DNA of 16,723 nucleotides from a virus (taxonomy: Duplodnaviria > Heunggongvirae > Uroviricota > Caudoviricetes). Below the pieces are notes generated by a model that had not been told where the DNA came from, searched no databases, and saw nothing but the letters and a program-made list of their open reading frames with translations. The DNA lies in IMG/VR virus record IMGVR_UViG_2660238346_000008. One strand, given 5' to 3'. Both the position numbers and the translations under genes were made by a program. Position 1 is the first letter of the stretch, and the number at the start of each line of letters is the position of its first letter. Shown in pieces: positions 5,625 through 13,545 of the stretch.

Positions 5625-5659
5625 CTTTCTCCGGGCGTAAAAAAACCGCCTCAGCGGTT
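5625..5659 (-). terminator. Hairpin + U-tract + SD cassette immediately upstream of the tape measure gene (candidate internal attenuator/terminator)
   Basis: Minus strand reads AACCGC-TGAG-GCGGTT followed by T-run and GGAGAAAGGTGA then ATG at 5618-5620. Confidence 0.35.
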
Positions 5660-5667
5660 CTCATCAT

Positions 5668-6347
5668 TCATGACTGTGCTGCAAAGCTCAGCGCGTCTTC
5701 CAGCGCCGCAAACGGATCCACCTCCGGCTTATCCTCATCCTCGCCCCAGCAGAGCATGGCGTCCTTCAGTGCAACATTCATCCCCTGTGCCCCGAAAACC
5801 GCTTTCACGATCTGTGCATTACGGATATCCCCGCGCTCATCACCCAGCGGGGATACCCTGTCGAACTCCATCCACATCATCGCCTCGCTCGCACTCAGGC
5901 TGTGCCGCAGTTCGGATAAGGTGCGCCCCAGACGGAGCGCAAGTCGCATCAGAAAGCGAATTTCCGGGCGGGCTACTTTTTTCTGGCCGACTCTGCATCA
6001 GCGATCAGTTCCAGTGCCTGACGCAGCAACCGGGCATGTACCGGACCATAGACGGCCAGCACCTGCTCACGGTCGTCCGGAGTGAACACCCGTTGCAGGT
6101 CAGTATCACACAGGACATCGCAGAACAGCGTCACATCCGCTTCCAGGTTACGGCGGGTTTTCGCCACCACCGACAGGGTATCGTCATCCTCTCCATCACC
6201 ATTGAGCACTTCCTGCCACAGATACCAGGCCTCTGCCGAAGGCTCCCGCAGCACCACGCTGACATTTCTCCATTCCGGCACCTTCACCGTTTTATGACGG
6301 AACCCCGACAGTCTGGCCAGCGCCAGTGTTTTCAGATCCTTTTTCAT
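5668..6347 (-). CDS. Tail assembly chaperone G-T fusion produced by programmed -1 ribosomal frameshift
   Basis: The 93-aa T-frame ORF (5668..5949) is in the -1 frame relative to G. Shifting at A AAA AAG reads ...SARKK-VARPEIRFLMRLALRLGRT..., which runs straight into the T ORF. Confidence 0.65.
5973..6347 (-). CDS. Tail assembly chaperone G (upstream frame of the G/G-T pair)
   Basis: Position between major tail and tape measure genes; ends ...ADAESARKK-stop with the slippery run at its 3' end. Start at ATG 6345-6347 (MKKDLKT...) preferred over the track start at 6395 because it has an AAGGGGA SD and does not overlap the V gene. Confidence 0.75.
   Translation of the reverse strand: MKKDLKTLALARLSGFRHKTVKVPEWRNVSVVLREPSAEAWYLWQEVLNGDGEDDDTLSVVAKTRRNLEADVTLFCDVLCDTDLQRVFTPDDREQVLAVYGPVHARLLRQALELIADAESARKK
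5976..5982 (-). other. Slippery heptamer A AAA AAG (programmed -1 frameshift site for G-T)
   Basis: Minus strand reads AGA AAA AAG TAG at the end of G; the same heptamer is the classical dnaX-type -1 shift site. Confidence 0.65.
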
Positions 6348-6361
6348 GATGACCCATCCCC

Positions 6362-7078
6362 TTATCCGGCGGCTGCGCTCACTGTCACGGTGCATTCAAA
6401 AGACGTCACACTCTGTGCTTTCTCTGCCGAATCGGTCACCACGCAGGTATATTTCCCCGCATCAGCGGACTGCGCACCTGGCTTACTGAAGGTGTCTGTC
6501 GTCTGACCGTCAACCGGCTGACCATCCTTCTTCCAGGCGTATTTATACGGCGGCGTTCCCCCGTTGGCACTGACTGACATTGTCAGCAGCGCACCGGTAT
6601 TCACGGTAAGTGTCTTATCCAGATTTTTCCCAAACGCCAGCGGTACCACAAAGGACACCGGTTTGCCTTTCAGACGCAGTGAAAACGTTGCTGCCACCAC
6701 GCCGTTGGTACCGGATGACCAGGTGTGCTGACGCACTTCCGCCAGGAACTTAAAGCCCTTACCGGACGGAAACAGCACCTTAAACGCATACAACGCGTCA
6801 TTGTCATAGGCATCACGCAGGGCGTTCTGGGCCTGATTCAGATAAAAATTACCCGACATGGAAATCTCGGACGACGCCCCCAGACCGTTGATGTTCTCCT
6901 GCTCTGTGGAGCAGAGCGTGGTCACATCAATATCCTGTTTCTGACCGGCGGTGAACTGGACTTCCTTGATAGTGCAGTCCAGGCGCAGATATTCCGCCTT
7001 ATCCATAGTTTCAGCAGTCGCCGGGGCAGATGAAATCATCACCTGCGTCAGCTGTGAGCGTTCATACAAAGCAGACAT
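6362..7078 (-). CDS. Major tail (tube) protein with C-terminal Ig-like domain
   Basis: 238 aa; directly upstream of G/G-T; strong AGGAGG SD. C-terminal ~85 aa has an Ig I-set-like pattern (PPYKYAWKKDGQPV...DAGKYTCVVTD...FECTVTV). Confidence 0.8.
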   Translation of the reverse strand: MSALYERSQLTQVMISSAPATAETMDKAEYLRLDCTIKEVQFTAGQKQDIDVTTLCSTEQENINGLGASSEISMSGNFYLNQAQNALRDAYDNDALYAFKVLFPSGKGFKFLAEVRQHTWSSGTNGVVAATFSLRLKGKPVSFVVPLAFGKNLDKTLTVNTGALLTMSVSANGGTPPYKYAWKKDGQPVDGQTTDTFSKPGAQSADAGKYTCVVTDSAEKAQSVTSFECTVTVSAAAG

Positions 7079-7083
7079 TCTGC

Positions 7084-7115
7084 CTCCTGATAATAAAAAA
7101 CCCGCACACGGCGGG
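7084..7115 (-). terminator. Hairpin + U-tract + SD cassette immediately upstream of the major tail gene
   Basis: Minus strand reads CCCGC-CGTGT-GCGGG, then a T-run, then ATTATCAGGAGGCAGA and ATG at 7076-7078. Confidence 0.4.
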
Positions 7116-11526: not shown

Positions 11527-11536
11527 AACCTGTTAC

Positions 11537-11554
11537 GGGAGGCGCACGCCTCCC
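11537..11554 (-). other. Perfect 8-bp inverted repeat with 2-nt spacer, 17 nt downstream of the capsid gene stop
   Basis: Minus strand reads GGGAGGCG-TG-CGCCTCCC; no U-tract follows, so not a canonical terminator. Confidence 0.4.
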
Positions 11555-11570
11555 GTCCTCCTCATCAGAC

Positions 11571-13508
11571 TCAGCCGCCGGACGCACTGCCGTAGTTCAC
11601 TCCGGTGATCACCGCCACCGCCGCGGTACGGCGACGACGCCAGTTGATCCAGCGCTCCGCACGGATGGCCACGCTGCCTGTCTGGAACATGGAAACCAGC
11701 TCCACCGGGGACGGCGTGGTACTGTCGCCGGTCGGCTCAGACTGCATTTCCAGTGATGCCTCGCGGGACATATCCACTGCCACGCCGCCGTCATCCGCCA
11801 GATAAATATCCGGGGCATTCACCAGCACCAGCTGGTCACCCACGTACTGGGAGACAATCACCGGCAGCCCCTGGAAGGAGCCACCCAGCAGGGTCATGTC
11901 CGGGTATTCCTTCTGACCCAGCGCATTTTTACGCATGGACAGTGCCAGGGCATTGGTGCTGGACATCAGCCAGACCGCACCGGTGGGCTGCAGGTTTGCT
12001 GCCACAAACTGTCCAAACGCAGCCTCTGCATCCGCATCCGGGTTACCGGTTGATGCCGTGCCCTTCACATCATGGGTGATGGACGCCGGGGAGACATCTG
12101 CCACTGCGGCTTTTTTCGGGTCCACAAAGTCTGTATCCAGACGCGCCACCACCGCTTCCGCCAGCGCATTACGGACCAGTGCATCAGCAGCCGGACTGGA
12201 AAAACGGATCAATTCTTCCGTCAGTACCGCAATGGCCGACACCTTCGCATGACTGAAGGTGATGGATTCAAAATCAAACTTCGTCAGGGGTTTTGCCTTA
12301 CCCTCACCCACCCAGCCGGCAGCACCGCCGGACACCTGGGCGTGCACACGGATATTGAACGGCACCTGACGAAGTGCAGGGATCCCGCCCTGACCAAATC
12401 GCCCGATAATGGTCTGCGGACGCAGATAATCAATAAAGTCCTGTGCGTATTCCTGATATTCAGACAGGCTGCCTGCCCACTGCGGATCCGTGGTGGTCCC
12501 CGCGCCCACTGCCGATTTCAGGACATGATGCAGACGACTGTCATCCGGATACTGACGACGGGCCACTTCCAGGGCTTCAGAGCGGACACCTTTAGCCGCA
12601 GCCAGCGATTTGGCAAAACGTGCGAAACCAATCCCCTTATCCAGTTTCTGCTCCACACGGATCACCGGCGCAGAAGCCACCGCGGCCACATTCCCGTTAC
12701 CGGCCTGTTTCACCGGCTGCGCCGTGGCGGCCTTACCGGCTTCCAGTTCACGCAGGCGCTTCAGGTGCGCATCCACCTGACGTATTTCCGCTGCGGTGTT
12801 GTCGTAATGCTCTTCCTCCTCCACATCCAGCGTGCGCCCTTCCTCTGCGGCTTTGGTCATGACCTCCTCAAGGGAGGCTGCCAGTGCTGCACGCTTGTTT
12901 TCAAAACTTTTAATCTGTTCGCCAATATTCATTATGGTCTTTTCCTTATGAAAAACGGTTGTTGACTGTGCCGCAGCGCCGGCAGAAGATGCGATTTTCA
13001 CCACCGGTTTCCGGTTGCCGGACGCGGCAGAAAACTGGCGGTCGTAAGATTTAATGGTCCGGATGGTGCATTCCGCATTCGCGGGCACGGTGACGGCAGA
13101 CACCTCCATCAGCTCCCAGCGCAGAAAATGCAGTCCGCCTCCGTCCAGAAAGGTGTATTCATGGGGACGGAAGCCCACGGACAGCCCCCTGACCAGCCCG
13201 GTCTTAATGGCCGCCCAGGCCTCATCCAGCCGGGCAGCCAGTTGCGATGGCATATCCGGCACGGGCTTCGCCAGTGTTGCCGTGATTTCCAGCCCTTCGC
13301 TGACCCGGCGCACCGTACACTGCCCCACCGGGCGGGAATGGTCATGCTGCCAGAGAAACGGGATCGCACTGCCAAACTCCGCGCCCTCCGGCTCCAGGAT
13401 GTCACCATCCCGATCCGGAGAAGGCGTTGACGCAATCCCGGTGATCACCCGCTCATCCTCACTGAAGGATTTCACCGTCAGCAGGGAGCAGGCCCGTTTA
13501 AGAGTCAC
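11571..13508 (-). CDS. Prohead protease (HK97-type, S78/U35) fused to HK97-fold major capsid protein
   Basis: 645 aa. N-terminus has protease-family motifs (SFSEDERVITGIASTPSPDRDGDILEPEGAEF, PFLWQHD, GLSVGFRP, MEVSAVTVPANAECTI). Then a charged coiled-coil (delta-domain-like) segment and a ~400-aa capsid-like body. GTG start at 13506-13508 with AGGAGG SD. Confidence 0.85.
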   Translation of the reverse strand: MTLKRACSLLTVKSFSEDERVITGIASTPSPDRDGDILEPEGAEFGSAIPFLWQHDHSRPVGQCTVRRVSEGLEITATLAKPVPDMPSQLAARLDEAWAAIKTGLVRGLSVGFRPHEYTFLDGGGLHFLRWELMEVSAVTVPANAECTIRTIKSYDRQFSAASGNRKPVVKIASSAGAAAQSTTVFHKEKTIMNIGEQIKSFENKRAALAASLEEVMTKAAEEGRTLDVEEEEHYDNTAAEIRQVDAHLKRLRELEAGKAATAQPVKQAGNGNVAAVASAPVIRVEQKLDKGIGFARFAKSLAAAKGVRSEALEVARRQYPDDSRLHHVLKSAVGAGTTTDPQWAGSLSEYQEYAQDFIDYLRPQTIIGRFGQGGIPALRQVPFNIRVHAQVSGGAAGWVGEGKAKPLTKFDFESITFSHAKVSAIAVLTEELIRFSSPAADALVRNALAEAVVARLDTDFVDPKKAAVADVSPASITHDVKGTASTGNPDADAEAAFGQFVAANLQPTGAVWLMSSTNALALSMRKNALGQKEYPDMTLLGGSFQGLPVIVSQYVGDQLVLVNAPDIYLADDGGVAVDMSREASLEMQSEPTGDSTTPSPVELVSMFQTGSVAIRAERWINWRRRRTAAVAVITGVNYGSASGG

Positions 13509-13513
13509 ATCAG

Positions 13514-13545
13514 CCTCCTGAAAATAAAAAAACCGCCGCAGCGGT
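13514..13545 (-). terminator. Hairpin + U-tract + SD cassette immediately upstream of the protease-capsid gene
   Basis: Minus strand reads ACCGC-TGCG-GCGGT, then T-run ATTTT, then CAGGAGGCTGAT and GTG. Nearly the same sequence as the cassette upstream of the major tail gene. Confidence 0.4.

Follow-up and report, generated by a model that had tools for sequence, protein, structure and literature searches.

The 16,723-nucleotide (nt) DNA of virus record IMGVR_UViG_2660238346_000008 (Caudoviricetes), referred to here as the window, carries three short hairpins among its structural genes, with a T-run and a Shine–Dalgarno sequence behind each of them. They directly precede the genes for a prohead protease/major capsid fusion (site A), the major tail protein (site B) and the tape measure protein (site C), and a fourth cassette of this kind stands in front of tail gene L. 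On the whole, it is somewhat more probable than improbable that all four are intrinsic terminators, which would act on RNA polymerase lacking the Q modification and be bypassed after prophage induction. The parts of sites A, B and C, read on the minus strand, which is the coding strand, are as follows.

13532-13545, minus strand: hairpin A, ACCGC-TGCG-GCGGT, beginning 26 nt past the large terminase stop codon
Leader of site A, minus strand: T7 at 13526-13532, AT-rich spacer, AGGAGG at 13514-13519 and the GTG start of the protease-capsid fusion at 13506-13508
7101-7115, minus strand: hairpin B, CCCGC-CGTGT-GCGGG, beginning 29 nt past the tail-completion stop codon
Leader of site B, minus strand: T6 at 7095-7100, spacer, AGGAGG at 7083-7088 and the ATG start of the major tail gene at 7076-7078
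5644-5659, minus strand: hairpin C, AACCGC-TGAG-GCGGTT, beginning 8 nt past the gene T stop codon
Leader of site C, minus strand: T7 at 5639-5645, GGAG at 5629-5632, AGGTGA at 5621-5626 and the ATG start of the tape measure gene at 5618-5620

The initial annotation had reported these elements at 13514-13545, 7084-7115 and 5625-5659, and both their positions and their placement before the three genes were borne out by the sequence and by a strict scan. The stems comprise 5-6 pairs, nearly all of them GC, with loops of 4-5 nt and 6-7 T abutting the stem, and the distance from the stem end to the start codon is 22-23 nt at A, B and C alike. The strict scan accepted only perfect stems with 5 or more pairs, 4 or more of them GC, followed by at least 6 T in the next 8 bases, with loops of 3-8. 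On the coding strand it returned 5 matches, compared with 0.23 +/- 0.47 in 200 dinucleotide shuffles (maximum 2), and on the other strand 1 match against 0.40 in shuffles. The fourth and fifth coding-strand matches are the hairpin of the cassette in front of gene L (483-500) and a hairpin within the start of the porin gene. A looser scan gave no overall enrichment (21 vs 16.1).

Calculated free energies of hairpins A, B and C were modest, from -7 to -10 kcal/mol (-8 to -10 for hairpin A), and folding of the whole intergenic stretches was no better than that of shuffles (z = -0.3 to -1.4). As the gaps do not fold significantly as a whole, the signal lies in the specific motif of a hairpin plus T-run and not in general stability. 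Between the terminase genes and tail gene M there are four intergenic gaps longer than 40 nt, and A, B and C occupy three of them. The sites combine the features of intrinsic terminators, namely a GC stem-loop on the transcribed strand, an abutting U-run, and an occurrence beyond chance with maintained pairing.

The genomic setting is consistent with this. The structural regions of the Shiga-toxin phages BP-4795, YYZ-2008, 2851 and 1717 are 94-97% identical to the window. BP-4795 (94.6% identical) carries the module after Q, stx1 and the S-R-Rz lysis genes, all in one orientation, and prophage Sp10 of strain Sakai is arranged similarly. By comparison with these two, the window probably represents part of a Q-dependent late operon, in a lambdoid prophage from the Shiga-toxin-phage family. 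The late genes of Stx phages depend on Q antitermination, and the Q-modified polymerase is resistant to terminators (PMC7547250).

The cassettes are conserved well beyond close relatives. Stem A is kept in 80 close relatives, with a loop alternating between TGCG and TCCG. Among 28 more distant loci, collected by a scan of capsid-fusion alignments with one genome per species (47-77% protein identity), all 19 Enterobacterales loci covering the junction have the hairpin, T-run and Shine–Dalgarno sequence directly in front of the capsid gene, as does one locus from Diaphorobacter, a betaproteobacterium. The capsid in these 20 site-A orthologues is 52-77% identical to that of the window, and the typical sequence in front of it is ACCCGC-nnnn-GCGGGT TTTTTCGTTTC(A/T)GGAGG. 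In seven alphaproteobacterial loci the hairpin is absent, and a short gap with a Shine–Dalgarno site is all that is found there. In nearly all orthologues, 5 or more uninterrupted T abut the stem, the copy in Arsenophonus falling below the scan threshold, and the spacing to the start codon is nearly constant. In an alignment of 21 site-A sequences, 92.9% of cells pair, compared with 88.2% after shuffling and at most 49% with slid partners, and changes on both sides occur at 3 of the 6 pairs. Covariation at site A is modest, as most of the stem sequence is conserved and the variation lies in the loop and flanks.

Similar conservation was found at the other two sites. Stem B is unchanged in 77 of 78 close relatives with an intact junction, with a variable loop; in the exception the 3' arm is shortened, and the cassette has disappeared from one further locus. 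Site C has a second allele, AACCTGC-TGTG-GCAGGTT, found in BP-4795 and 16 viral contigs, so that the stem has been replaced and its pairing retained among phages about 94% identical. The two alleles move with different gene T 3' ends, and the ribosome-binding segment CCCGGAGAAAGGTG is constant. In five loci with a homologous tail module, the same arrangement precedes the major tail and tape measure genes. Over all loci, the strict scan returned recurring junctions between terminase and capsid, capsid and the next gene, tail completion and major tail, major tail and G, T and tape measure, and M and L; hairpins with T-runs recur at these junctions even where the tail genes have no detectable homology. 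Alignment across related phages, which had been suggested as a check, thus revealed stems and T-runs that are kept while loops and flanks vary.

In GenBank, the major tail gene of BP-4795 (ORF64, locus L109, 16304-17149) starts upstream of hairpin B, so that its frame overlaps the preceding gene and crosses the hairpin. This start is probably miscalled, the one preceded by AGGAGG (MSALYERS...) being more likely real. Moreover, a prophage of Diaphorobacter caeni (locus L106, 2967-11997) has six hairpin sites, four of which are followed by TTTTTCAT and two by the close variants TTTTTCAA and TTTTGCAT, which appears to be a form of the cassette particular to that host or phage.

Elements of this kind are already on record in phage HK97, whose entry (NC_002167) contains features labelled 'regulatory: terminator, putative' within the late operon. 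This annotation reportedly originates with the work of Juhala et al. of 2000 (J Mol Biol 299:27). The putative terminators stand upstream of the protease gene, downstream of the capsid gene, on either side of the major tail gene, and upstream of the tape measure gene, I and J. Two of them are positional orthologues of sites in the window. The element before the HK97 major tail gene (6692-6719), ACCCGCC-agat-GGCGGGT ttttctttttccaggagacagct ATGTCTGCACTT, corresponds to site B, with which it shares a CAGGAG(G/A)CAG context, and the element before the tape measure gene (8398-8422), ACCCGC-tatcaa-GCGGGT ttttttttatgggtgaaaat ATGGCTACGTTG, corresponds to site C. In both cases the first codons of the downstream gene also match those of the window. 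The HK97 equivalent of site A follows the portal gene, whereas site A of the window follows the terminase gene. In addition, HK97 has a hairpin after its major tail gene that the window lacks, and its junction before the tape measure gene holds the moron gp15, whereas the same junction in the window is empty. As judged from these likenesses, the window adds new and well-conserved examples to a known kind of element, with a putative function.

The proposed mechanism would operate as follows. In the lysogen, polymerase without the Q modification would enter the structural genes through leakage past the terminator behind the late promoter, from moron promoters or from spurious starts. On reaching a cassette, the transcript would form the short GC hairpin, the polymerase would pause on the U-run, and the transcript would be released ahead of the Shine–Dalgarno site, leaving the capsid, tail-tube, tape measure and later genes silent. 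After induction, Q-modified polymerase would ignore these weak terminators and transcribe the whole operon. Each putative terminator forms one unit with the ribosome-binding site of the gene that follows. The read-through transcript would carry the hairpin between cistrons, and the U-rich stretch with its strong Shine–Dalgarno sequence would serve as that gene's own, uncoupled translation start. The cassette junctions would also be the places where gene modules are exchanged and where morons come and go. Within this scheme, termination itself, its override by Q, and the silencing of lysogens as the selected benefit are the steps that we infer.

Four features favour termination. A conserved T-run touching the stem is needed for termination and not for a stabilising hairpin, and elsewhere the operon uses a hairpin without a T-run, directly past the capsid gene; all sites point with transcription; they lie in an operon served by a terminator-resistant polymerase; and, within the same window, the terminator of a porin moron would insulate gene L. 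The suggestion of the initial annotation was thus upheld as far as real, correctly oriented elements conserved across genera are concerned, and silencing without antitermination, its proposed effect, is the best-supported reading and a conjectural one.

Several observations weigh against it. The stems of the window are short and weak, and their orthologues in relatives are more stable (-11 to -13 kcal/mol). Site C is borderline by a classical terminator score, which was calculated with modern energy parameters and is indicative only. The search for promoter-like sites in need of insulation gave none upstream of A, B or C. Extra selection on translation or recombination is suggested by the tight and unvarying distance to the start codon and by the repeated use of sequences behind the hairpin. 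The lack of hairpins in the alphaproteobacterial loci belongs here as well, and may reflect only a different terminator usage in those hosts.

Comparison with known systems places the cassettes in a wider context. Phage lambda has GGCCGC-ctgt-GCGGC followed by T7 before capsid gene E, with further hairpins after E and before J. A regulatory parallel is tR' of lambda and Stx phages, an intrinsic terminator that halts unmodified polymerase in the lysogen and is read through with Q (PMC7547250), which is the logic proposed for the window sites. In contrast to these sites, tR' immediately follows the late promoter and gives rise to a defined short RNA (6S/StxS); A, B and C lie within the structural genes, about 9-20 kb downstream by the distances in BP-4795, and are much weaker hairpins. 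P22-like phages, represented by phage L, likewise have predicted Rho-independent terminators inside a single-promoter, antiterminated late operon, although their podovirus virion module is different and the terminator lies at the end of the procapsid module. The genome paper of phage L states that intra-operon terminators also occur outside that phage and that their 'roles are not known', and it considers partial termination or the blocking of spurious, non-antiterminated transcription (bioRxiv 10.1101/2020.10.05.325894). For the mobile element Tn916, a terminator-insulator is described in which a terminator blocks premature expression and antitermination overrides it (PMC11658703); the element and its host are unrelated to ours, and the likeness is one of logic only.

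Could the hairpins instead serve the read-through transcript itself? At the RNA level, each would guard a processed end, whether the 3' terminus of the preceding segment or the 5' terminus of the capsid, tail or tape measure segment, or shield the ribosome-binding site from sequence lying upstream, with the U-run acting as a U-rich translation enhancer, and the yield of the next protein would be set in this way. The near-constant spacing, the strong AGGAGG at A and B, and the fact that the post-hairpin sequence is itself conserved and reused all fit this idea. The cassettes also stand at non-overlapping genes, where translational coupling breaks, and Q-modified polymerase makes a terminator irrelevant in the only phase that needs these genes. 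However, a stabilising hairpin needs no T-run, yet nearly all orthologues retain 5 or more T without a break against the stem, and the post-capsid hairpin of the same operon has none. Furthermore, such a cassette is found in front of low-copy proteins (tape measure, L, M, J) and abundant ones alike, and the hairpins are weak as blocks to exonucleases. As a replacement for termination this role seems unlikely; being compatible with termination and not exclusive of it, it may plausibly coexist with it in the form of translation uncoupling, a U-rich leader or protection of a processed end. Partial termination during lytic growth, by which the mRNA would be stepped down so as to set protein ratios, is considerably less probable. 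It is one of the two possibilities raised in the literature (bioRxiv 10.1101/2020.10.05.325894), and it would be plausible at site C, as few copies of the tape measure are needed, and after the capsid and tail-tube genes in relatives and HK97. Nevertheless, A and B stand directly upstream of the two highest-copy proteins, which is the opposite of what attenuation would achieve and a poor fit to the expression ratios that the initial annotation had considered, and Q-modified polymerase resists terminators (PMC7547250).

The intercistronic attenuators of bacterial operons, for example those of rplL-rpoB and rpsU-dnaG-rpoD, are terminators between cistrons that lower downstream expression. They differ from the present elements in that they reduce the downstream genes, whereas two of the three sites here precede the most highly required proteins. 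The original description had emphasised the genes for the most abundant or longest products. This emphasis was selective, since the cassette also occurs before L in the window, before G, L, I and J in relatives or HK97, and before M-like genes in other contigs; moreover, cassettes also follow capsid and tail-tube genes.

It is doubtful, too, that the hairpins are mere by-products of genome evolution, that is, scars or landing pads of moron insertion or recombination linkers with no present regulatory role; we consider this somewhat less probable than the role in the read-through RNA. The porin moron, missing from BP-4795, did deliver a terminator, a T6 run and a new ribosome-binding site to gene L, and the junctions are both occupied and empty across relatives. 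At site C, the hairpin allele and the upstream gene T allele move together next to an unchanged ribosome-binding segment, so that a joint falls at the T-run, and neighbouring genes vary independently in their identity to the window (for instance, terminase 83% or 65% with capsid 76%). A neutral scar would be expected to decay, yet stems and T-runs are held across genera and even a replaced stem still pairs. In addition, the breakpoint between two terminase types falls within the terminase gene, about 800 nt inside it, and not at hairpin A, and a mosaic joint exactly at hairpin A was rejected for this reason; joints at B and C are suggested.

Finally, site C could be the 3' end of an IsrK-related, Hfq-binding small RNA derived from the 3' end of gene T, which is very improbable. 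The only Rfam match in the window is to isrK (RF01394; 5639-5706, minus strand; 27.1 bits, E = 0.02), and it spans the full model length. Its score is far under the gathering score of 50 bits, the 5' two-thirds lie in coding sequence, and its best part is the terminator hairpin, which probably drives the match. Hfq-bound prophage small RNAs with checked positions are all located elsewhere. The Pas, EcOnc/AgvB/AsxR, StxS and HnrS small RNAs were rejected as candidates, those that could be placed not lying at A, B or C; the position of PasB was not established. HnrS (EcOnc10-12) lies between Rz and HNH in Sakai Sp10 (locus L432, NC_002695.2 1946819-1946867), antisense to the late operon and just beyond the region matching the window, and EcOnc22 lies antisense in the gap between I and J of Sp15 (locus L431, about 2902714-2902774), in a different module. 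These two positions indicate that small-RNA genes also occupy late-operon junctions. The abundant anti-sRNAs are found near the late promoter, and the neighbours described for Pas small RNAs are near Q and the lysis genes. The positions of HnrS copies suggest that Sakai prophages Sp9 and Sp12 also carry the module. Term-seq data exist for strain Sakai (GEO GSE143631; Sy et al. 2020), in which site A of Sp10 is at NC_002695.2 1950280-1950293 on the plus strand; a search of the literature on transcript-end mapping in lambdoid late operons found nothing usable.

The resemblance between sites A and B had been taken as a sign of a duplicated cis element. The consensus given for them was correct (24 of 27 positions in the original register and 14 of 16 after the T-run). 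Anchored independently, they are identical at 23 of 27 positions, whereas 604 pairs from different junction classes average 16.3 +/- 2.4; five other different-class pairs also reach 23 of 27. About 16 of 27 identities are expected between any two cassettes because of the constraints that they share. A and B are the most similar pair seen within a genome, and general homogenisation of cassettes within genomes found no support in a permutation test (p = 0.22). There is no sign of a recent duplication, and each site appears to be old and independent, with distant orthologues of its own (B and C in HK97, A in 20 genomes of other species).

What does recur is the sequence behind the hairpin. The exact 20-mer TTTTTTATGGGTGAAATATG stands before the tape measure genes of HK97 and of four loci, and three loci have a near match to it in front of gene L. 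The exact form is present in at least 120 viral contigs, a GC hairpin preceding 121 of 122 matches with 61 different hairpin sequences, and for TTTTTTATGCCCGGAGA a hairpin precedes 115 of 118 matches; the searches were seeded from tape-measure-junction sequences and the contigs are redundant, so these counts and those that follow are not unbiased. T6-ATGGGTGAAAT-ATG precedes 14 unrelated protein families, chiefly J-like fibre and tape measure genes and also L-, M- and I-like genes, and T6-ATGCCCGGAGA precedes 21 unrelated families, mostly tape measures. Both variants recur in hundreds of phage contigs (viral loci L112-L350), the GC hairpins in front of either one vary in sequence, and in both an ATG comes straight after the T-run. 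A full-text literature search for ATGGGTGAAAT returned only unrelated primer matches.

Variant reuse, the cassette borne by the porin unit, moron-occupied junctions and the allele swap of site C at the T-run leave room for a broader reading. In this reading, units of hairpin, T-run and ribosome-binding site are exchangeable junction cassettes linked to the movement of morons and the swapping of modules, the T-run being the point of joining. Morons would deliver the cassettes, which would act as break points, fail-safe terminators and translation restart points. This is a tentative proposal, which we regard as possible and short of probable. Junctions occupied by morons are those between T and tape measure in HK97 and two further loci (L082 and L086), and between tail completion and major tail in L082. 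In L082, a 176-amino-acid (aa) frame lies between tail completion and major tail (8802-9587), with a hairpin on each side. In L082 (about 10730-11160) and L086 (17200-17690), a small membrane or zinc-ribbon-like frame lies between T and tape measure and is followed by a hairpin.

Morons are independent promoter-gene-terminator units in lambdoid late operons (PMC3594210), and the window contains one together with its terminator. The cassettes and other hairpins outside sites A, B and C are listed below; the initial annotation had listed neither the cassette at 483-500 nor the hairpin at 7142-7158.

483-500, minus strand: hairpin of the fourth cassette, GGGGCGC-GTCT-GCGCCCC, followed by T6 at 477-482, ATGGGCGGATAT and the ATG of gene L at 462-464
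483-2043, minus strand: porin moron between tail genes M and L, comprising an AT-rich upstream region, the porin gene (674-1837) and the terminator
11535-11556, minus strand: post-capsid GC hairpin with a stem of nine pairs and no T-run (-18.5 kcal/mol, z = -2.6), in the fourth gap (11527-11570)
7142-7158, minus strand: weak extra hairpin with a T-rich tail (-5.8 kcal/mol), overlapping the tail-completion stop codon

The porin unit is an insertion relative to BP-4795, with a GC content of 41% compared with 57% in the remaining window, and the region upstream of its gene has only 25% GC. With an extra gene absent from close relatives and a deviant composition, this OmpC/NmpC-type porin unit is a classic moron, and possibly a lysogenic-conversion porin. 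Its terminator (-16 kcal/mol) ends the unit and directly precedes gene L. The cassette is absent from BP-4795, whose M and L genes overlap (TGATG); the insertion carried its own terminator, T6 run and new ribosome-binding segment to the front of gene L. The cassette at 483-500, which closes this low-GC insertion, is just such a moron terminator. A, B and C share its layout of hairpin, T-run and ribosome-binding site and lie at junctions that are moron-occupied in other phages. They differ from it in that no extra gene or promoter is attached to them in the window: no extra reading frame was found between the conserved genes that flank A, B and C, and these sites therefore do not qualify as morons.

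The post-capsid hairpin stands directly past the capsid stop codon, and its BP-4795 copy differs by one loop change; in some relatives and HK97, the junction between the capsid and the next gene has a hairpin with or without a T-run. The hairpin at 7142-7158 was considered as a tandem terminator and rejected, as it is disrupted in BP-4795, and it is probably incidental. A further hairpin at 1795-1812 (minus strand), CAGCTG-TGGC-AGCAGCTG followed by TAATTTTT, is found just within the 5' end of the porin gene and could be a chance occurrence or an attenuator.

All long reading frames of the window are on the minus strand, and their Pfam assignments describe a siphovirus morphogenesis operon.

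16085-16450, minus strand: HNH endonuclease (Pfam), near which the window ends
15230-15793, minus strand: small terminase (Pfam)
13572-15233, minus strand: large terminase (Pfam)
11571-13508, minus strand: prohead protease/major capsid fusion, 645 aa, GTG start at 13506-13508 (Pfam PF04586 and PF05065)
Between the capsid fusion and portal in the gene list, minus strand: reading frame of 73 aa
8612-11359, minus strand: portal, 915 aa (Pfam)
7145-8615, minus strand: connector, head-completion, gp10-like and tail-completion genes (Pfam)
6362-7078, minus strand: major tail protein with tail-tube and Ig domains, ATG at 7076-7078 (Pfam)
5668-6395, minus strand: tail chaperones G and T (Pfam)
2378-5620, minus strand: tape measure, 1080 aa, ATG at 5618-5620 (Pfam)
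2044-2385, minus strand: tail gene M (Pfam)
674-1837, minus strand: OmpC-type porin (PF00267, E = 1e-140)
462-464, minus strand: ATG of tail gene L (start only)

The gene order is unusual at 11571-15233, where the large terminase is followed by the protease-capsid fusion and then by the portal. The usual order has the portal ahead of the protease and capsid genes. The order of terminase, capsid and portal is kept in relatives down to 47% capsid identity, alphaproteobacterial prophages included. In the portal frame (8612-11359), the portal domain at residues 54-382 is followed by a long C-terminal extension, and BP-4795 (locus L109, 18546-21292) and several other records annotate a portal plus a hypothetical protein instead of one gene; this is due to a difference by fusion or frameshift, or else to the way the records were annotated. 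No tRNA was returned by a tRNA scan of the window.

The window thus adds well-conserved examples of terminator-like elements within an operon to the medically relevant family of Shiga-toxin phages. Public records leave these sites unannotated, and in the BP-4795 record the tail-tube gene is even made to run through the hairpin. If silencing in lysogens is their true role, the elements would help to keep prophages quiet, including in hosts whose defences sense such proteins. Additionally, the repeated appearance of almost identical post-hairpin sequences in front of unrelated genes may be relevant to the way in which mosaic phage genomes are put together.

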